IMG/VR virus record: IMGVR_UViG_3300014039_000013
Span: 96,404 to 160,403 of that record
Origin: a virus
Taxonomy: Duplodnaviria > Caudoviricetes
Direction: 5' to 3' (one strand)
DNA: 64,000 nt
How positions within the stretch are numbered: position 1 is the stretch's first letter; each line of letters starts with the position of its first letter. Both the position numbers and the translations under genes were made by a program. A model generated the notes under the pieces. The model was given only the letters and a program-made list of their open reading frames with translations, was not told the origin of the DNA and did not search any database. Shown piece by piece: positions 2,247 to 52,891 of the stretch.

Positions 2247-2604
2247 ATAATATATTTACATATTCATATTGTTCTTTAATTTTTCTTTTTAAAAAAGACA
2301 TAGTATTTTCTATTATAAAAAATAATCTAATTTTATTAATATTATTTATTTCGCTTTTAATATTTCTTTTTAATAAATTAAAATAATTAGAATTATTATA
2401 TAATTTTTTATATAATTGTAATTCACAATCAGCTCGAAGTAATTCTTTATTACATGATTTAAGATCATAATAATATAATTCTAAAACTGTTGTTTTTCCA
2501 ATTACATTTCCAAACAATTTTGGAGTATATGTATATTGTGCAACTACATGATTATCGTTAGTAATCATAATTTTATAATCCATTGAAAACTTAATTCTCT
2601 CCAT
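2206..2604 (-). CDS. Hypothetical protein
   Basis: ORF track; overlaps both neighbours in operon. Confidence 0.65.
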   Translation of the reverse strand: MERIKFSMDYKIMITNDNHVVAQYTYTPKLFGNVIGKTTVLELYYYDLKSCNKELLRADCELQLYKKLYNNSNYFNLLKRNIKSEINNINKIRLFFIIENTMSFLKRKIKEQYEYVNILYDKQKRFNQFSEY

Positions 2605-4034: not shown

Positions 4035-5264
4035 TTAAATATTTAAATCATTAAACATTCTATCTTCCATCCAAACTTCTGCACCAATATAATCTCCATT
4101 ACTATGTTGATTAAGAGTTAAACAATAAAGCTTTTCTATACCTACACATAATTCATTTCTTAATCCTTCTGGATAACATTTATTTATAATATTAGATAAT
4201 GTTATTTCTTCATTTTCTGAATAATACTTTTCAGAATATTCTAATATTGCATTAAATATATATAGCCAAAGAAGAATCTTTTTAAAATTATATGTAGGTC
4301 TTAGAAATCTAAATTCAATAGTTTTATTAACATTATAACATAAAGCATTAATAAAGTTAACAAAATAATATCGAGTAATTACATTCCACTTTCTTTTACG
4401 TTCTATATCGTTAGGATGAGCTTGTGTAAAATCACCATAAAAAGGTCTTCCTACTAACTGCTGATACATTTTATCAAAGCTAGTATAAAATGGAAGTTTT
4501 TTACAATAATCTTTTTTATTATTTTTATATTCCGAACTATAAAACGTAAGACTTGGAAGAATTCTTGTTAATTCACTTTGCAGTATATAACAAGTTTTAT
4601 AAAGATTATAGATTTTATCTGATTTTAATGGGTAACCTCCTAAATGAACATGTAAAGAACATTCTTTATTAAAATCAGTATATTCTTTAAGAGTTCCTAA
4701 TTGTTGATAAAGAAGAGCTATTCCATTATTACCCTCTAATACTACAGTTGAATATTCTGGAGCTGATATAGATCCATCTCGAAGAGGAATCAATCCATCT
4801 TGGAAACATATATCTTCAGGAACATAACCTTGTGAAGTTTCAAATTCTAAACCAAATGTATATTTTAGATAATTCGATAACTTATAATGAGTTGTATTAT
4901 TTTTAATAATTTGTTTGTTTTTAAATATATTAAAATTTTCTATAGCTTCATAATGTTTTTCTATTACATAAGGAAATTCTTCTTGTCCCTTAATAAGTTG
5001 TTCTCTTCTACAACTTAATGGAGTCATACAACAAGGTGGAAAATACATTCCTCTACATTTACTGAAAACTAATTTCTCTTTAAATATTTTAGGATTAGTT
5101 AAAAATGTTTTTACACAATCGTCAATAATAATAAACATTTTAACTAGTCCTTCAAAGGAATTAGTATATCCATAAATAACTTGTCCAAAGATATAATCTA
5201 CAACAATTTTTACAGATCCTCTTTGAGGTATCCAATATTTATTTACTTCATCAAAGACTTGCAT
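4035..5264 (-). CDS. Putative amidoligase (Amidoligase_2, COOH-NH2 ligase superfamily)
   Basis: Motifs FGLEFET, DGSI, EYST, CSLHVH, RY, TIEFR. Confidence 0.8.
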   Translation of the reverse strand: MQVFDEVNKYWIPQRGSVKIVVDYIFGQVIYGYTNSFEGLVKMFIIIDDCVKTFLTNPKIFKEKLVFSKCRGMYFPPCCMTPLSCRREQLIKGQEEFPYVIEKHYEAIENFNIFKNKQIIKNNTTHYKLSNYLKYTFGLEFETSQGYVPEDICFQDGLIPLRDGSISAPEYSTVVLEGNNGIALLYQQLGTLKEYTDFNKECSLHVHLGGYPLKSDKIYNLYKTCYILQSELTRILPSLTFYSSEYKNNKKDYCKKLPFYTSFDKMYQQLVGRPFYGDFTQAHPNDIERKRKWNVITRYYFVNFINALCYNVNKTIEFRFLRPTYNFKKILLWLYIFNAILEYSEKYYSENEEITLSNIINKCYPEGLRNELCVGIEKLYCLTLNQHSNGDYIGAEVWMEDRMFNDLNI

Positions 5265-6568
5265 TTTTCTTTAATTTCTTTAAATGTTTCATCTAAAGTA
5301 TCATTCAATATTTCAAATGCTTGTCTACAACTTCTTCCATATTTAGTAATAGTTTTAAATCCATTAATAAATTCAATAGAAGTTGTTGCAGTTAGCATTT
5401 TAAGAGTTCCTGTAAACGGCTCTTTTTCAGTTGGAGACAAAGCTTTAAACCACTGTTCTCCTTCTGAGAAAACTTGATCACAACTTAAATATCTTATAAG
5501 AAGTTTAAATTTAGAATTAAATATATCATTTGTTAATCCTGTTTGCTTTTTTAGAGCATACAAAAATTTAAAACATGAAGAATTTCTAAGAGCAATCCCA
5601 TTCCAAAAATATATTTCTTTACAGTCAGAAGTTTTACAAGGTTTATCAACTATTCTTCCAAATTCTGTAATAATATATTTACCAGATAAAAGACTACCTT
5701 TACCAGAATAAGTATTATTTAATTGATTAAGTAATATATAATCATCATAAACAAAATTATTATAATTAAAATCATCATAAAAATATTTACTATATGATGC
5801 TATAGGCCTTTCTTTATGTTGATATACATCGTCTCTAGGAAATTCTTTTATAGGAACTATGTCTTTTCCATCAAATTTAAGTAAAATATTAGAATTTATG
5901 TCCCATGTTATTAATCCAGGTCTAAGAGCCATTAAATATGAACATATAGACGAAAATACTAATTCTTCTTTATCAACATCTATACAAAAATACAAAGGAC
6001 GTTCTTCAGTTTTATCTTTACTATATTTATCTTTCTTAGATGCCCCCTTAAAAAGAAGAATTTCTGGAGTTTTCTTTCTATAATCAGCTATAGCGAATAC
6101 AGCTCCTCCATTATATTCATTTAACGAATCATATCCTGTATAATAGAATATTCTAGCCATAACTTGGGAATCAGTCATTCCTTTAATATTTATTTCAGGA
6201 ATATATTTTTTGGCTAATTCTTCATAATTATGAATAGTTCCATTATGCATTAGCACATATTCTATTTTACCTTGTTTATTAGTAATTACAACAGGTTGAG
6301 CAGTAGTTTCATCAATTTTCCCAACAGATGCCTTTCTACAATGCCCAAAAGCTATAGTACTTTCAAAACACGTTTTTAGAAATTCATTTTCTGGAAAGAA
6401 ACATTGAAACCATTTTTTATCACCTTTTGATCCATACTCGTAGTGACCATCTATGAAATAGCCACAAGAGTCACCGCCTCTACTATCATTGGCAATTCCT
6501 AAAGTACAAAAGGTTGTAAAATCGAATCTTCTGGGCTTTGTATTAACTATGCCCCAAATACCACACAT
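5243..6568 (-). CDS. Class II (Ntn) glutamine amidotransferase
   Basis: N-terminal MCGIWG; RGGDSCG, GHCRKAS, HNGTI, TDSQ. Confidence 0.88.
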   Translation of the reverse strand: MCGIWGIVNTKPRRFDFTTFCTLGIANDSRGGDSCGYFIDGHYEYGSKGDKKWFQCFFPENEFLKTCFESTIAFGHCRKASVGKIDETTAQPVVITNKQGKIEYVLMHNGTIHNYEELAKKYIPEINIKGMTDSQVMARIFYYTGYDSLNEYNGGAVFAIADYRKKTPEILLFKGASKKDKYSKDKTEERPLYFCIDVDKEELVFSSICSYLMALRPGLITWDINSNILLKFDGKDIVPIKEFPRDDVYQHKERPIASYSKYFYDDFNYNNFVYDDYILLNQLNNTYSGKGSLLSGKYIITEFGRIVDKPCKTSDCKEIYFWNGIALRNSSCFKFLYALKKQTGLTNDIFNSKFKLLIRYLSCDQVFSEGEQWFKALSPTEKEPFTGTLKMLTATTSIEFINGFKTITKYGRSCRQAFEILNDTLDETFKEIKEKCKSLMK

Positions 6569-17216: not shown

Positions 17217-17454
17217 TTTCAGAATTAAATAATTTTTTCAGAATTAAATAATTTTTAAAATTCTAAAAACTATATTATTAATACAGGGTTATTAATTTTG
17301 TTTATAAAATATTTTTTGTCCAAATAAAATTTTTAAATTATATTTATAAGTTCGGAATTAAATATAGGGGGGGATTATAAATATGAACTTTAAAAAAATA
17401 AAATAAATAATTTTTTAATTAAGAATTATTAACATTTGGTTATTTAATTCTGAA
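17217..17454. repeat. TTCRGAATTAAATA motif, three direct and one inverted copy, at the strand switch
   Basis: 19-nt tandem 17217-17254; copy 17351-17364; inverted copy 17441-17454. Confidence 0.7.
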
Positions 17455-17494
17455 CTAATAAATTAATTTTGTAATCAATAATAAATTAATAAAT

Positions 17495-17842
17495 ATGATA
17501 GAACTTTTAGAAAAATTAGCAACTGAGCTTGCAAATGCAAAGCCAGTAGTATCTGAAAATGGTAATCAGATATTTGATATAGATGGTTTAAAAATTGAAT
17601 TGAAAGAAAATGGTGATTCAATTAGTATTACATTAACTCACAATGATTTAGCAGAAGATTTTAAAAAGTGGTGTGATAAATTACCAGACGATGTCTTTGT
17701 TGAAGCTTGTGAACAAATTGAGAATATGAAAGAATTTACAGAAGATATTACTGAAGAGAAAATTTGTTTGTTTAAAAATTTAGTAGTAAATTTGATAAAG
17801 AAACACATTAAAGATTATCAGAATCTTCTAGAAACTCTTTAA
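17495..17842 (+). CDS. Hypothetical acidic protein, first gene of the suppressor-tRNA operon
   Basis: ORF track; TAATTTTG (-7-like) at 17464-17471; no TAG. Confidence 0.75.
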   Translation: MIELLEKLATELANAKPVVSENGNQIFDIDGLKIELKENGDSISITLTHNDLAEDFKKWCDKLPDDVFVEACEQIENMKEFTEDITEEKICLFKNLVVNLIKKHIKDYQNLLETL

Positions 17843-17850
17843 TAGATTAA

Positions 17851-17939
17851 GGCTCTGTGGTGTATGGTTGCACGGGTTGACTCTAAATCAATATAGCCTT
17901 CTGAGGGCGGCGGAGTGGGTTCGATTCCTACCAGGGCTT
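17851..17939 (+). tRNA. Amber suppressor tRNA (anticodon CTA), long variable arm
   Basis: Acceptor GGCTCTG/CAGGGCT; D stem GTGT/GCAC; GTTGA-CTCTAAA-TCAAT; 22-nt variable region; GTGGG-TTCGATT-CCTAC. Confidence 0.88.
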
Positions 17940-17946
17940 CTATAAT

Positions 17947-18246
17947 ATGATTATAGCAATTTACAGAATTAATAATAAGATTTACAAAACTACTAATTTA
18001 AAGAAGAGTATAAAGAATAAAAACATTAATGAGATTCTTTATCAATTAGATTATAGTGGCAATGTTCAATCTGCTGAAGATATTTTAGATAGATGGATTA
18101 AAGTAAATCTTAAAGATTATGACAAAAATTTAAAATATTATTATTTTAAAAATAGAAAAACAGGGAATGTGATCAGGTCTATATATGATAATTTAGATAA
18201 TTTAAAAAAAATTATTAAAGTATATGAATATGCAAGAATATCTTAA
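17947..18246 (+). CDS. Hypothetical protein
   Basis: ORF track; no TAG. Confidence 0.6.
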   Translation: MIIAIYRINNKIYKTTNLKKSIKNKNINEILYQLDYSGNVQSAEDILDRWIKVNLKDYDKNLKYYYFKNRKTGNVIRSIYDNLDNLKKIIKVYEYARIS

Positions 18247-18416
18247 ACAACTTTATGAATAGAGTATACATCTCTGTTAGACTATTGACAATTTAACTCA
18301 TTTAATCCATTTGGAAAATAGTCAAGAATATTTAAATTGGCATGATGAGTTAAATGATATTTCGATATCTTATTAAAAAGTATATGTAGTAGTTAAAAAT
18401 AAATTATTAATTAAAC

Positions 18417-18444
18417 AGGATGGACTTCGGTTCATCCTTTTTTT
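18417..18444 (+). terminator. Rho-independent terminator
   Basis: AGGATGGAC-TTCG-GTTCATCCT followed by T-tract. Confidence 0.85.
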
Positions 18445-18456
18445 GTTTTATAAAGT

Positions 18457-21192
18457 ATGGCAAAAAAAGAAAAAACTAAAAGAAGTAAATCATTTACTGA
18501 TTTATTAAATCAACTTGTTGAATCTCGTTAGAATAGAAATGTTGATTTAGAAGAAAAGAGAGACGCTATTAGAAATCCAGTTGAGGATTTACCACAAATA
18601 GCAAAAAGTGAACTTTAGAATGAAGCAAATTCTAGAACTGTAATTAATAATACAAGCAATTGGAGTATTCAAACTAACGAATATGGATATCCTTATGTTT
18701 ATTCTGAAGATTTTCAAGAAGCAATACCAGAAGAATTTTTAAATGATGTATTAGAAAAAGTTCCACAATTAAAATAGGGCTATTAGAATATACGAGCTGT
18801 ATATGAACAAAATGCACATCCAACAGTAATAACACAAGGTGAAGATCATTCTAATGATACTCCTTATCAATAGAAAATGCGTGAACAAAATAATAGATAT
18901 TGGGCAAGACAATATGAACAAAACACAGGAGCAGAAGCTCTTAGCGGATTGTTGGCTCCACTTATGCCATCATAGTGGGTTTCTGCAATATCTAGAGGTA
19001 TACAAGATAAATCTTTTTTATCTGCATTAGAAGGCTTATATACAGGTCATGGATTTAAAGATTTAAATAGTTCTGCATTACAAGGAGATTTAGGTACTGC
19101 GGCAAATTTTGTATTTGATATTCTTGGTCCAGTAGCTGTAGGTAAAGTTTTAAAAGGATCAATGTCTGTAACAGATGGTATAGCTTAGGCTTTAAAAAAT
19201 AGTAATATAGTAAATCAAATAAAGTTAGGTACAAAATATGCAAGATAGCTTGGATATTTAGGAATGAATATGCCGCTTCATATATTAAAACCAGAAGAGG
19301 CATTTCAATTAGTTAAATAGGGTGTTAATGATAAAGATGTATTAGATTATATAAACACATTATCAGATGATGTAATTGCAAAAGCAGCAAAAGATGCTAA
19401 ATTTACTAAAAAAAGTATTGTAAATTTTGGTACACACAGTGCCAGTGATAGAGTCGCTAATGCTTTGGCAATTAACAAAGCTAAATATCCAATAACCGAA
19501 ACTCCTATTAGAGATTTAGCAGAATTAAAGAAACAAATTGCAAGTTTAGAATCTAAAGCCAAAACCACAAAATTAACAAGATCAGAAAAAAGTTAGCTTG
19601 AAAAATTAAAAACGCAAGTTTAGCAAATACGTGGTTTAAAAAGAACTAATGCTAAAAATAATTTAACGGACGAATAGTTAATAGATAGTTTTAACAAAAA
19701 TCCAGAAGATCCAATAGCATTACAACTTATTAAAGATAAAAATTTATATCCATTAGTATAGAGTAGAGATATTTATACTAAATTAGCAACTGGAAAAAGA
19801 ATAACAGAAGCAGAAAGACAACTTATTAAATATGAAGATCTTACTGAAAAAGAATTATAGAATTTAAAAACACTTGATTACAAAAATGGATTTAATAGTG
19901 CTGGTATAGATGAAGCTATAGCAAAAAAACAATCTATTGTTAATTAGCCTACAACGCCTGGATCTACACCTAACTCTACTACAGCTTCAGAACCATCACC
20001 TACTGTTTAGCCAACCACAGAACCTGTAGCTAATCCAGTTATTGAACCACTGTCAGTTAATAATCCAACATCAACAGCCCCAGAACCTGTAGCTGTTCAA
20101 GAACCAACAAACCCCACAGAATATACTTTTATAATTGATACTCCTACAAGAAGCATTAAACTTAATGTATCAGATCCTAACTCAACTAAAGCATTTGATG
20201 AATTTGGAAACGAATATGGAGTTGTATGGTAGAAAAACGAATACGGAGAGCTAACACCTAAATTAACAGGTGAAGTTAAAATAGATAAAAGTCAATACAA
20301 TAGGTTATTTTCGACAAATCCAAATGTTGATTTATCTTCTGGGGAAGTTAGAATGGTTGAAGGAGAAAGTAGAAATAAATTTACACATCCGCAAGATTTC
20401 TTTACAAAACCAAAGAAAAATAAGAGAGGCAAAATTGGAACTTACTTTCTTGGAGAAAAAGCTAGACCACAAAAAGTAAAACCTACACTAGTAGAATACG
20501 GTGACGAACTTTATAATTTATACTCTAATGTTGATATACCAGAACACACCAAAACTATTAATTGGTGGACAACTGCTCCAGCATTAGGTGGAACTGGTTA
20601 TGGATTGTATTCTTTAGGTGATTGGATTTTTGGAAAAGATACACCAGAAGAAAAAGCAGCAAAGTTAAAACAAGAAGCACAAGAGAAAAAAGCCGATATA
20701 CAAGAAGCAATACAAAGTGCACGCATACCAATTTATGATTTTGAAGGAGAATTAGCTGATACAGTATCAATTAATATTAATGGTAAACCACAAATTTATG
20801 CTATAAAACCTACAAATAAAATTGATCCAGAGTACCATCCCGATTCAAATATTTGGTCTGGTATTCCAATTACTATTGATAAAGATGGTATTGGGCATAT
20901 TAGGAGTGATGAACCAACATTCTTTACTAAGAAATATGGAAAATGGATTCAAGTAAACAGTGCTCATGATTTAGCAACTCCAGATTAGTTTTAGCAAGTT
21001 AATGACACAACAAATATGGATAATAGTTTACCAGCTGTTAGTATGCCAAGTTAGCCATCAGAACAAACCCCAACTAGATAGTCTACTCCAGTTCAAAGAC
21101 AACAACCAGTTGAACAAAATACTGATCCAGATGATGATTATGTAAAAAATGATTTTTTAAAAACATTATTTAATAATACATATTATGTTTGA
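18457..21192 (+). CDS. ~911-aa putative virion cargo protein (TAG=Gln), 'A-type' N-terminus
   Basis: Start, the 20353-20988 fragment and the final TGA share one frame under TAG read-through (interior only partly read codon by codon); P/T-rich linker. Confidence 0.75.
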
Positions 21193-39313: not shown

Positions 39314-39605
39314 TATAAAAAATGAAATTTTATCATATATTTAGGAACATTATAAAGCGCAATATATTGGTGAATTAAAAATTACTAAAATTGAACCAAT
39401 TGGATTTAAAGTTGTTTTTGGATTAAATGCTCCAGAAAGACCTTTAACAATAATGGCGTAGTTAGATACTTGTGATTTTATTAAATTTATAAAAAAGGAA
39501 ATTAAAGAACGTAGTATGGATTTAGTAAAATATTTTATTGGTATTTAGACTCTTCCTGAATAGTGTGAAATTAATACATCTTGCTCATGTCAGAAAATGA
39601 ATTAA
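39255..39605 (+). CDS. Hypothetical protein between terminase and portal (TAG=Gln)
   Basis: Read-through ORF filling the gap. Confidence 0.6.
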
Positions 39606-41788
39606 TAGACAAAGCTAACTCTGCTATCGCTGAATTAGTTTATCCAAAATATGAATTAAAAAAAGCTTATAATTACTATCATGGGAAAAGAGATGCAGAT
39701 TAGTTTAGATACTTAGAGGAAAATTATGGAATAGGAAATCCTACATCTGTTGAATTTATACCATTAATTAGAAAACATATAGATGCTCTTGTAGGCGAAT
39801 ACTTAGGTATGCCGATTATTCCAAAGGTATCATGTAAAGATGTAGACACACTTTCTAAAATACATAGAGAAAAAGAATTATTAATTAATAAAGAGGTTTT
39901 TGAATTTTTAAGAAAGAGATATAAAAATAAATTGTTATCATTTCTTGAAAGAGGCGGAGAAGACGCCCTGTCTGATAGCTCAATTTAGAAAGAAATAGAC
40001 TCGTTAATTGACAATTTGGATGAAAATTTTATTTCATCTTATGAAATTGCAGCTCAAAATATTGTTGAATATTTAATGTAGTGTAGACATACAGATATGA
40101 CTACTAAATTAAGATAGCTTTTACTTGATTTACTAATATCTGGATATACATTTTTTAGAGTTCATCCTTCTGTTGGAGATTAGAATGTAGAAATAGAAGT
40201 ATTAGATCCATTAAATACATTTATTGATAAAAATCCAAATTCTCCATATATTAAAGATTCATATAGAGCTGTTGTAAGAAAATGGTATACAAAATCTCAA
40301 ATATTAAATTTGTATGGATCTTAGTTATCAAGAGAAGATAGAAAACTTTTAGAAGATTCGTGGGAACAGTCTGTTTGTGACTATAATTCTTATTATGTAA
40401 GAACTATGTCTACAGCTAATGGAACTCCTGCAACAGACGGAATTCGAGCTGGAGAAGAAATTGTTCCTGGTTATCCTGATGGATATGGTAAAGATAGAAC
40501 ATATCATTTTATTCCTGTTTATGAAGTAGAATGGCTTGAAACAGATTCTAAATTTGTAATGCAACGATATAAAGTAATTCGTATTGGCGATGGAATTTAT
40601 ATACTTCAAGGTAGGGATGACAATGTTGTTAGATCGCATGATAACCCAAACTATTGTTCTTTAACATTGAATGGTGTGTATTTTGTTAATAGAAATTCAG
40701 AACCTTATTCGTTAATGTTAGCATGTGTATCTTTATAGGATAAATATGATCTCTTACATTTCTATAGAGATAATTTGATTGCTTCTAGTGGATCTGTAGG
40801 TGATTGGCTTGATGTTAGTATGCTTCCTTCATTCTTAGGAACAAAATTAGCCGAAAGAATTGAAAAGTGGAAGGCTTATAAAAAAGCAGGAACAGCATTA
40901 ATAGATTCTTCACAAGAAGGTAGGCTAGGTTCTGGACAAGCTCCTGTTAATACAATATTTAATGGTTATGATGACACTGTAAAAGCAACAGCCATACAAG
41001 CAATTCAATATGCAATTGACGCAATTGAACAAACTGCGTCTTCAATTACTGGTGTATTTAGAGAGCGTTTAAATGGAATCGAATAGAGAGATGCTGTAAC
41101 AAATATCAAAATGGGAGCTAATAATTCATTTATAATTACTAAATAGTATTATTAGCAAATGGATTTAGTAACCAACGAAATGCTTTTAGATGCATTAAAT
41201 GTTGCAAAAAAAGTATACAAAAATGGACTTACTGGCACATTAATACTAGGTGATAAGTATTAGAAAATATTTACTGCTTTGCCTGAAAAGTTTACTATGA
41301 CCGATTATGATATTCATATATCTACAACTACAGATACTCTAAAAGATATGGAATACATTAAACAGATTATTCCAGAATTTATTAAATCTAATTCATTAGA
41401 CCCATCAATTATATTTGAAGCTGTCTCATCCAAAAGTATAACAGAGTTAAAATCTAAAGTTAGACTTGCAATGCAAAAGCAAAAGAAAGAAAATAATCAA
41501 TTATAGCAATTAAGCTAGCAATGTGAAGAACTTTAGAATCAATTGCAGCAATCTTAGAAATAGCTTGAACAATTAGAAAAAACTAATCAAGAATTAGAAC
41601 AAAGTAAACTTCAGCTTGAGCAACAAAAAGTTCAAATGGATTATAAGATTGAGCAGCTTAAAGCTGACACTGATAAGAGATATAAAGATGCAATGATTGA
41701 AGAACAAAAAAAGCGCACAGAAATTGAGCTTGAATAGCTTCATGACGGAGATCCTTATAATGATAGAATAAGACAACTTGGAGAATGA
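39587..41788 (+). CDS. Portal protein, 733 aa (TAG=Gln)
   Basis: Fragments 40406, 40775 and 41279 in one frame; ITGVFRERLNGIE(Q)RDAVTN; Gln-rich C-terminal coil; follows TerL. Confidence 0.85.
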
Positions 41789-51579: not shown

Positions 51580-51676
51580 TCGTACACATATAAATTAGAT
51601 TATATAACCATACCTCTTGGTAAAAAATAAAGTAGATTTGGAACGGATTAGTAAATTTATGAAAATCACTAGTACA

Positions 51677-52891
51677 ATGCAGAAATATAAAAAACTTAAA
51701 TAGTACGATTTAATAGAAGTAATCGCTCATAGAAAAAATTTAATTTTAGCTGATAAGACTGCTAGAAAAGGAAAACATTATAGAGCTATAGCTAAACATG
51801 ATTTAAAATTAGAAGAACATTATAACAATATTACAAATATGTTGTTAAACAATACATACAAAACTTCTAAATACAAATTAAGTAAAATTTATGAACCTAA
51901 AGAGCGTATAATATATAAATTACCATATTATCCAGACAGGATAACACATCATGCAATTATGAGATTATTAAAACATATTTGGAATCGTTAGTTTATATCA
52001 ACAACATATGCTTGTATAGACAAACGTGGAATACATTCTTGTGCTAAAAAAGTTAAACAAATATTACAAGAATATCCAAATGATACTAAATATTGTTTAA
52101 AAATTGACATTAAGAAATTTTATCCGTCTATAAATAATGAAATTCTAAAAAGAATTATTAGAATAAAATTAGCAGATAAACGTTTATTAAATAATCTTGA
52201 TGAAATAATAGATTCTGTTAAAGGTGTCCCAATTGGTAATTATTTATCACAATATTTTGCAAATTTATATTTAACTTATTTTGATCGTTGGTGTAAACAA
52301 TATTGTCATTTTTATATACGTTATGCTGATGATATTGTTATATTACATAATGATAAAACATTTTTACATAATTTATTAATTGCAATAAAAATATATCTAA
52401 AACATGAATTAGATTTAGAATTAAAGCCAAATTATCAAATTTTCCCAGTTGAATCAAGAGGTATTGATTTTGTTGGATATGTTTTTAGGCACAATTATGT
52501 TTTATTAAGAAAATCAATTAAAGTTAAAATTAATAAATTATTAAATAATCGAAATAAATTAAATAATAAAAAATTTGTTAATAAATTAATGTCTTACTAC
52601 GGAATGCTTAAATTTTGTAATAGTAAACATTATTTATAGAAGATTGAAAAATTAACAGGAATACATTTAAGTAATTTTGTAGGTAAAAATATTAAAGTAA
52701 ATCAAATTAAAAGAGTTGTAAGAATCATTGAAATAGAACCACATAATAAATATTTTAAAGTGAATTTTATTTTAAACGGAAAACCTTATACTTTAAAATC
52801 TAAAAATAAATTATTATATAAAGTATTAAAATATGAATAGAATATTTGGGAATCAGCGTCCAAATTCGATAACAAGATTGATAAACAATAA
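51677..52891 (+). CDS. DGR reverse transcriptase, 404 aa, 4 in-frame TAG; absent from ORF track
   Basis: EPKERII, PDRITHHA, KIDIKKFYPSI, GVPIGNYLSQ, RYADD, GIDFVGY. Confidence 0.93.

Follow-up and report, generated by a model that had tools for sequence, protein, structure and literature searches.

An amber suppressor tRNA of a TAG-recoded phage with a putative spare glutamine anticodon loop in its variable region

Code-change modules described in crAss-like, Lak, and Jade phages place a standard-code suppressor tRNA immediately upstream of recoded late or lysis genes (PMC7886860; 10.1101/2021.08.26.457843; PMC9523058). Phage reassignments seem limited to TAG→Gln and TGA→Trp, and how host glutaminyl- and tryptophanyl-tRNA synthetases (GlnRS and TrpRS), which both depend heavily on anticodon bases (PMC9976931), accept the altered anticodons was left open (10.1101/2021.08.26.457843). 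Here we analyze an amber suppressor, tRNA(CUA), encoded in a 64,000-nucleotide (nt) stretch of IMG/VR virus record IMGVR_UViG_3300014039_000013 (positions 96,404 to 160,403), called the window below and numbered from its first letter. Its long variable region contains a hairpin with a loop like the anticodon loop of tRNA-Gln(CUG), and suppressors of TGA-recoded relatives carry a hairpin with a Trp-like loop in the same region. The best overall explanation, to which we assign a probability of roughly 0.5, is that a Gln/Glu-type CUA tRNA is charged by the host and carries a tethered spare Gln anticodon that GlnRS would read.

Much of the setting is already published, namely, a recoded Zeta-type crAss-like phage, a suppressor heading the late genes, and TAG read as Gln. 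The window's suppressor likewise lies directly upstream of recoded genes, with TAG→Gln here and TGA→Trp in relatives; unlike the published modules, including that of Jade phages, no adjacent or other synthetase or release factor partner was found. Amber suppressors of the supE type and other GlnRS-charged CUA tRNAs also combine CUA with a Gln-like body and a weak first acceptor pair and insert Gln at UAG via the host enzyme, as the phage tRNA very probably does. The phage tRNA differs from these in its inserted 17-nt hairpin, whose loop resembles a second, cognate anticodon loop, in having U73 or A73 instead of G73, C3-G70, and A38, and in serving hundreds of in-frame TAGs. A long variable region with a hairpin is shared with class II tRNAs (Leu, Ser, bacterial Tyr, and Sec), whereas the 4-bp D stem, the small D loop, the long single-stranded linkers flanking the hairpin, and a core closest to Gln/Glu are not; the phage arm conserves loop sequence rather than length or orientation.

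Anticodon-arm mimics outside tRNAs, such as those of the E. coli thrS operator and yeast aminoacyl-tRNA synthetase (aaRS) mRNAs, are small hairpins with a cognate anticodon loop outside a decoding arm, and isolated mimics in mRNAs bind cognate synthetases (PMC9976931). An anticodon-binding domain would recognize the phage hairpin in the same manner, but the known mimics reside in mRNAs and regulate translation, while the phage mimic lies within the tRNA that is itself to be charged. Aptamer-tagged allo-tRNAs are reported to show that a variable-arm hairpin is compatible with an active suppressor tRNA in translation (PMC7590224); in contrast to the phage tRNA, they are synthetic, have a 9/3 acceptor/T architecture, and carry an aptamer that is not an identity element. 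The available portions of PMC7886860, 10.1101/2021.08.26.457843, and PMC9523058 contain no description of a variable-arm anticodon mimic or of the two conserved neighbors described below (ORF A and ORF C). Our search of the literature on recoding and suppressor tRNAs, which was incomplete in coverage and so leaves novelty unproven, found no cognate anticodon-loop mimic in a variable arm.

Meaning of TAG and structure of the tRNA

A first-pass annotation, made from the sequence alone, had taken TAG to be a Gln codon, and comparison with relatives confirms this. Twenty-five recoded genes were translated with X at each TAG and aligned by tblastn to 56 related loci. Residues opposite the window's TAGs (n = 1,668) were Q in 37% of cases, compared to 37.4% opposite true Q codons, and in log-likelihood Q was the best meaning of TAG, with E and S well behind. 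In a strict test restricted to columns where ≥80% of ≥15 relatives agree on one residue, the window codon at 18 conserved Q columns was TAG in 7, CAA in 9, and CAG in none. TAG was absent from conserved E (0/39), S (0/22), L (0/53), Y (0/35), and K (0/36) columns and from conserved W, N, R, T, D, G, and A columns. The occurrence of in-frame TAG at Gln-homologous positions and at no other conserved residue is the usage of genetic code 15, with a Gln-inserting amber suppressor; judged from these alignments, TAG is a full Gln codon, more than a tolerated site. CAG occurs only 0 to 6 times per gene in TAG-rich genes, where CAA is the main Gln codon and TAG looks like the substitute for CAG.

The tRNA and the parts discussed below are as follows.

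17851 to 17939, plus strand: amber suppressor tRNA(CUA), 89 nt, with a class I Gln/Glu-like core, G1.U72, U73, and no encoded CCA (ARAGORN, Rfam RF00005, and family covariation)
17881 to 17887, plus strand: decoding anticodon loop CUCUAAA, with anticodon CUA at 17883 to 17885, invariant in the family (ARAGORN and sequence reading)
17896 to 17908, plus strand: variable-arm hairpin GCC/UUCUGAG/GGC, with a 7-nt loop like that of the tRNA-Gln(CUG) anticodon arm (sequence reading and family alignment)
17909 to 17915, plus strand: 3' tail of the variable region, GGCGGA(G), with last bases GGA that are part of the sister-phage loop UGGA

ARAGORN and Rfam (RF00005, 38.9 bits; gathering score, 29) agree on a tRNA with anticodon CTA, and the first-pass description of a 22-nt variable region with a hairpin, a G1.U72 pair, and a U discriminator stands. 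The acceptor stem GGCTCTG/CAGGGCT contains G1.U72 and U4.G69 and is followed by U73, and 22 nt separate the anticodon stem from the T stem. All features of a canonical elongator tRNA (RF00005) are present: a 7-bp acceptor stem, a 5-bp T stem, a TTCGAnT T-loop, GG in the D-loop, and a 7-nt anticodon loop with U33. No RNA family besides tRNA was found by Rfam between 17300 and 18500, and the single-sequence minimum free energy fold of the tRNA was uninformative (z = 0.08).

A scan with a pattern of the D arm and anticodon loop, with the variable region unconstrained, recovered 23 distinct relatives from viral contigs and metagenomes, including one contig binned with a Eubacteriales metagenome-assembled genome. 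Among these relatives, compensatory changes support 7/7 acceptor pairs and 5/5 anticodon-stem pairs, with 96.6% of cells paired; the covariation score was matched by 0/500 shuffles, and no slid register came near. The D stem GUGU/GCAC is invariant across the family. The 1-72 pair is UA in 13 members, AU in 6, GU in 3, and UxU in 1 but is never G-C.

Long arms had been taken at first pass to mark Leu, Ser, Tyr, or Sec tRNAs, an assignment that fails here. In comparisons with phage tRNA genes, the commonest family member scored 22 against phage tRNA-Gln(UUG), with tRNA-Glu as the next isotype (13), and the window copy scored 15 against Glu and 14 against Gln; scores against Ser, Leu, and Tyr were ≤9 for both. 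The 4-bp D stem with its 6-nt loop and the U73 discriminator also depart from class II. Class II discriminators are A73 for Leu and Tyr and usually G73 for Ser. Architectures of tRNA-Sec and allo-tRNAs (8/5, 8/4, or 9/3), in which the acceptor stem has 8 to 9 bp, the T stem is shortened, and the D stem of Sec has 6 bp, do not fit an acceptor/T arrangement of 7/5 in which every pair covaries in that register. A 22-nt variable region, the presence of GG and TTCGATT, and two bases (TG) after the acceptor stem separate the tRNA from tRNA-Pyl, a label that ARAGORN gives to any CUA tRNA. True tRNA-Pyl has a variable loop of 3 nt, one base joining its acceptor and D stems, neither GG nor T-psi-C, and PylRS as its partner. 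The first-pass statement that the tRNA does not resemble the phage tRNA-Gln(TTG) is right for this phage's own tRNA-Gln(UUG) at 1576 to 1648; the acceptor and D arms nevertheless resemble tRNA-Gln and tRNA-Glu of other phages. The same D arm also occurs in opal suppressors, and in part it is a marker of the lineage's suppressor scaffold, not of Gln alone. Within the E. coli GlnRS identity set (PMC9976931), the phage tRNA has G1.U72 (a weak first pair, like the U1-A72 of the set), G2-C71, G10-C25, U35, and A37.

Three TAG-recoded sister phages (L062, L063, and L070) encode a CUA tRNA homologue that keeps this D stem and has A1-U72 and a 4-nt variable loop, UGGA. Because sister L063 combines the same GUGU/GCAC D stem and the same upstream ORF A with this short loop, and because the window's long variable region ends in the same GGA, we interpret the "long arm" as a hairpin inserted into an ordinary 4- to 5-nt class I variable loop rather than as a class II inheritance.

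Anticodon-like loops in amber and opal suppressors

The variable-arm loop UUCUGAG fits the form of a tRNA-Gln anticodon loop (Y32, U33, C/U34, U35, G36, and R37), and it is here alone, not in the decoding loop, that G36 occurs. The motif N-U-(C/U)-U-G-(A/G)-N is present in 23/23 family members on a stem whose second pair covaries (CG 11, GC 6, and UA 1), and two versions of the loop, CUCUGAA and CUUUGAA, are identical to anticodon loops of real phage tRNA-Gln genes. By comparison, U followed by the tRNA's own anticodon and R was seen in the arms of 0/49 genuine Leu, Ser, or Tyr tRNAs. With two further scans, the distinct long-arm suppressors came to 82 amber and 43 opal genes, spread over many unrelated scaffolds of the D arm, T arm, and acceptor, numbers that show breadth and structural context and not frequency, as both scans required the motif. 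The stems fall into 24 amber and 36 opal types, and their pairs close a 7-nt loop only in the exact register. Recent duplication of the anticodon arm is an unlikely source of the hairpin, since visual comparison showed no sequence shared between the two stems.

Relatives of the phage sort into TAG-recoded, TGA-recoded (with TGA opposite W), and standard-code sets, and we had predicted beforehand that TGA=Trp relatives should carry a CCA loop. The first long-arm tRNA(UCA) examined, that of L186, had the loop GUCCAAA together with the tRNA-Trp acceptor set A1-U72, G2-C71, G3-C70, G4-C69, G5-C68, and G73 (compared with PMC9976931).

L186:127-220 and L200:931-1023, minus strand: long-arm opal tRNA(UCA) genes with the tRNA-Trp acceptor set and an NUCCAAA loop

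A scan with only the D arm and anticodon yielded 15 distinct long-arm UCA tRNAs, and in 15/15 the variable arm formed a 5-bp stem with a 7-nt loop, N-U-C-C-A-(A/U)-A. Compensatory changes support 4/5 stem pairs, with 97% of cells paired, and RNAalifold arrives at the same hairpin independently. Anticodon loops of real phage tRNA-Trp genes read CUCCAAA in 13/14 cases. The amber family lacks the opal motif, and the opal family lacks the amber motif. Short, 72-nt opal versions with the same D arm occur in L190, L192, L206, and L209, and TGA-recoded relative G009 encodes a 75-nt tRNA with anticodon UUA (L151:393-467), which is ochre-suppressor-like.

Several other CUA tRNAs and tRNA-like genes were noted among the loci. 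A long-arm CUA tRNA at L102:2699-2780 (minus strand) has G1-C72, G73, and a variable hairpin with a UAA triloop but no Gln-like motif; therefore, not all long-arm amber suppressors share the design. Odd CUA tRNA-like genes at L057:310-395 and L099:6079-6165 (both plus strand) have an apparent 8-bp acceptor stem (GGGTTAT.../...ATAACCC) and, after the anticodon arm, a 3-bp hairpin with a 5-nt loop (AUUGU or AUUGC) that includes UUG. In L057, where the gene immediately follows a tRNA-Gln(UUG), the T region is aberrant, 19 nt match the window's anticodon arm exactly, and both ARAGORN and Rfam missed the gene. A search with the exact 19-mer led to this unrelated CUA tRNA-like element (L057 to L059). 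TAG-recoded G001, the contig of L006, has at least 26 tRNA genes, with no CUA tRNA called by Rfam or ARAGORN among the loci examined, and a 93-nt gene called tRNA-Tyr(AUA) at 160905 to 160997 looks miscalled.

Charging of the suppressor and rival explanations

Searches of the complete genome recovered no Glu/GlnRS (PF00749), Tyr/TrpRS (PF00579), or class IIa aaRS (PF00587) domain, with LeuRS-type (PF00133) and PylRS models not run, and no GatB (PF02934) or release factor (PF00472) domain; control genomes gave matches in these searches. Since no phage charging genes were found, host enzymes must charge the tRNA, and a phage synthetase beyond the window, which the first-pass annotation had thought might be needed, did not materialize among the tested families. 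Its related suggestion of noncanonical charging holds in part. An apparent spare Gln anticodon loop in the extra arm makes unusual charging probable, but neither a phage synthetase nor partner proteins tied to the arm came to light. Adjacent early genes at 4035 to 6568 (minus strand), near the tRNA cluster, encode Amidoligase_2 and class II glutamine amidotransferase domains, which are a known phage pairing; nothing was found that ties them to Gln-tRNA formation.

We consider it very probable that the tRNA is a host-charged, Gln-inserting amber suppressor. In the mechanism that we propose, it would be transcribed from a short cassette (ORF A, tRNA, ORF B where present, ORF C, and terminator), and the anticodon-binding part of host GlnRS would read the hairpin loop UUCUGAG. 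This loop would supply U33, C34, U35, G36, and A37 of the tRNA-Gln anticodon loop, restoring the G36 determinant that the decoding anticodon lost in the change from CUG to CUA. In the opal case, the suppressor anticodon has lost C34 (PMC9976931), and the CCA loop of the hairpin would offer an intact Trp anticodon. With the variable region beginning at the upper end of the anticodon stem, a hairpin as large as an anticodon arm could flank the real arm on flexible single-stranded linkers and hold its loop about equally far from the acceptor end. The ribosome tolerates long variable arms. That the hairpin acts as an aminoacylation identity element is, like the mode of docking, an inference to which we give even odds at most. 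More tentatively, phage suppressors may follow a general design in which a tethered cognate anticodon stem-loop (CUG/UUG for Gln and CCA for Trp) is read by the synthetase, uncoupling identity from decoding.

Several observations weigh against this reading. The hairpin is dispensable, given that sister phages achieve TAG→Gln recoding with a short-arm suppressor. Relative to the E. coli GlnRS identity elements G73, G3-C70, G36, and U38, the window tRNA has U73, C3-G70, A36, and A38, although the rules of the host may differ. The solved E. coli GlnRS-tRNA complex has the variable loop facing away from the enzyme, toward solvent, and docking would therefore need movement of the arm or of the real anticodon arm. 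The amber mimic stem is only 2 to 3 bp, and the UUCUGAG version can also be drawn as 5 bp closing a CUG triloop (GCCTT-CTG-AGGGC), as at first pass. Within the window's family, UCUG of the loop could pair with the conserved tail CGGR in 23/23 sequences (5.4 expected); a pseudoknot could explain part of the loop conservation in this family, and the CGGA-UCUG complementarity may represent a pseudoknot or a masked state. As a general cause of loop conservation, loop-tail pairing was rejected, since it holds only in the window's family (18/59 in other scaffolds, with 10.7 expected). The motif requirement of the two breadth scans belongs here as well.

Host GlnRS might instead need no more than U35, G10, and the weak 1-72 pair to charge the tRNA, leaving the hairpin as a tolerated expansion or a structural element (e.g., a pseudoknot bracing the core) and its likeness to Gln as coincidence or a relic of the gene's origin. 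U35 directs the glutaminylation of amber suppressors of various origins, and two acceptor changes are enough to give Gln identity to an amber tRNA-Ser, which has a long arm (PMC9976931). The sufficiency of the short arm in sister phages and the complete loop-tail complementarity within the window's family point the same way. We nonetheless regard this explanation as unlikely, given that the loop motif is kept across changing stems and scaffolds (24 stem types), that tails of other scaffolds are mostly noncomplementary, that an independent opal family has the cognate CCA loop in a 5-bp, 7-nt hairpin (15/15), and that 0/49 ordinary long-arm tRNAs are similar. A reader other than GlnRS is also conceivable, with the hairpin serving a tRNA-modification enzyme of host or phage, acting as a decoy for an anticodon nuclease or toxin or as a sponge for host GlnRS, or forming a site for ORF A or ORF C. 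Conservation of both ORFs beside the tRNA would suit such a role, as would the precedent of anticodon-loop mimics in mRNAs, which are regulators and not substrates (PMC9976931). The same ORFs, however, flank the short-arm suppressor and are absent near long-arm opal tRNAs, and identity is the simplest reason for the loop triplet to match the recoded amino acid. We know of no nuclease specific for Gln and Trp anticodons, and a reader of this kind strikes us as improbable.

Two further explanations concern the fold and ancestry of the tRNA. The CUG hairpin could serve as the anticodon arm in an alternative fold, seen by the synthetase only or also by the ribosome reading CAG, with the CUA arm as the extra arm. 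In its favor are an opal mimic whose size (5 bp plus 7 nt) is exactly that of an anticodon arm, the GG in place of a single nucleotide between the D stem and the CUA arm in the window's family, and the near absence of CAG from late genes. With an amber mimic stem of just 2 to 3 bp, CUA placed in the canonical arm by both Rfam and ARAGORN, a distance of only 2 to 6 nt from mimic to T stem, and no precedent known to us for a tRNA with interchangeable hairpins, this is a distinctly poor candidate. Least credible of all is derivation of the suppressor from a class II tRNA for Ser, Leu, or Tyr, with UAG read as that amino acid and TAG at Gln-derived sites only through CAG→TAG mutation. The long variable region would be accounted for, and the anticodon loop CUCUAAA matches that of supF-type tRNA-Tyr suppressors. 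But TAG occupies 7/18 strictly conserved Q columns and 0/110 conserved S, L, and Y columns, and the core, with its 4-bp D stem and 6-nt loop, scores lowest against Ser, Leu, and Tyr. The hairpin is moreover flanked by 2 to 3 and 6 unpaired bases, and no SerRS- or TyrRS-type domain was found in the genome. On the column test and tRNA similarity together, we reject a class II origin and any meaning of TAG other than Gln.

A spare cognate anticodon loop read by the host synthetase would be a concrete, testable answer to how GlnRS and TrpRS accept phage suppressors, and it would also explain the paradox of a long arm on a Gln tRNA. If correct, it would represent a new kind of tRNA identity element and a natural separation of the charging address from the decoding anticodon. 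Work on genetic-code expansion and nonsense suppression would gain a rule for designing efficient suppressor tRNAs, and the loop would be a marker predicting the amino acid that a phage suppressor inserts. Should the proposal fail, a conserved motif recurring on dozens of tRNA scaffolds would still call for explanation.

Genomic setting and neighbors of the suppressor

The phage genome is complete, has direct terminal repeats, and comprises 160,403 bp at 27% G+C; the window is its last 64 kb. Relatives of its portal protein (39581 to 41788) that are 42 to 66% identical occur in 56 IMG/VR contigs of up to 197 kb, and otherwise the portal has only a distant match to crAss-like phage portals; these data fit a crAss-like phage of the Zeta-type, large-genome group. 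That group switches among the standard code, TAG recoding, and TGA recoding (PMC7886860; PMC12386605), and its predicted hosts include Bacteroidales as well as Firmicutes (PMC12386605). Minus-strand genes between 46 and 113.5 kb of the genome are nearly free of TAG. A plus-strand block that starts at 18457 in the window and wraps round to 46 kb of the genome has up to 53 in-frame TAGs per gene and has almost lost CAG. The suppressor cassette sits at the exact divergence point, at the head of this TAG-recoded late block, and its tRNA is the sole plus-strand one among the genome's 8 tRNA genes, all of which lie inside the window.

17495 to 17842, plus strand: ORF A, 115 amino acids (aa), acidic, without TAG, a conserved gene directly upstream of the suppressor (family hidden Markov model [HMM])
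17947 to 18246, plus strand: ORF B, 99 aa, without TAG, found only in this phage, where it follows the tRNA and precedes ORF C (no homologue at related loci)
18224 or 18230 to 18376, plus strand: ORF C, ~50 aa, a conserved small gene with in-frame TAGs at 18260 and 18278 (ORF C family)
18417 to 18448, plus strand: intrinsic-terminator-like hairpin (18417 to 18438) and T run that close the cassette (1 site found versus 0.5 expected)
18457 to 21192, plus strand: first large TAG-recoded gene, 911 codons with 21 in-frame TAGs, the context for the code switch

Sequence reading and the terminator scan agree with the first-pass layout of two TAG-free open reading frames (ORFs A and B), a small TAG-containing one (ORF C), and a terminator, and its proposal that the suppressor has its own operon is consistent with this short, terminator-closed unit. 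Of the neighbors of the tRNA, ORF A and ORF C are conserved, each kept in about 25 loci; ORF B has no homologue at any related locus. The ORF A HMM matched 31 frames, every one upstream of a same-strand CUA tRNA, including those of short-arm L062, L063, and L070. In relatives, ORF C starts ~10 nt past the tRNA and has the C-terminal motif (Y/F)L-x-W-x-D-x-LN-x-(L/I)S. ORF A had no significant match in Pfam, PHROGs, Atlas, or a PDB fold library, and its AF2 model (predicted local distance difference test score, 79) had no PDB match at E ≤ 0.001. Neither ORF B nor ORF C had a Pfam family above the cutoff, although ORF B has weak, subthreshold Pfam similarity to winged-helix domains.

Both conserved ORFs also flank the short-arm suppressor in sister phages and are absent near long-arm opal suppressors; they are therefore not tied to the arm, and we reject them as arm-specific partners. 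The first-pass suggestion that flanking proteins might be needed for charging is not supported. What the compared loci indicate is a conserved amber "code-switch" cassette that is not linked to the arm. Its synteny is kept in amber relatives. Searches of three standard-code relatives and of two TGA-recoded ones, the latter alone being complete genomes, did not find ORF A.

Upstream of ORF A, an AT-rich spacer contains a direct repeat, cagaattaaataatttttt, present twice at 17219 to 17258 (plus strand). The repeat may serve the cassette as a promoter or regulatory element; a sigma-70 scan around it did no better than chance. The short-arm sisters' ORF A homologue at L063:1120-1488 (plus strand) holds two in-frame TAGs and therefore would not be producible before the suppressor works. 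Within the recoded late block, a gene at 51617 to 52891 (plus strand) encodes a reverse transcriptase domain (RVT_1; E = 2.7e-15) and probably belongs to a diversity-generating retroelement such as those reported in Zeta crAss-like phages. In two relatives, L116 (11302-12462, minus strand) and L123 (downstream of the tRNA at 2254-2339, minus strand), a GIY-YIG-type, homing-endonuclease-like gene lies between the suppressor and ORF C. It fills the slot that ORF B takes in the window, and the site appears to be insertion-prone.

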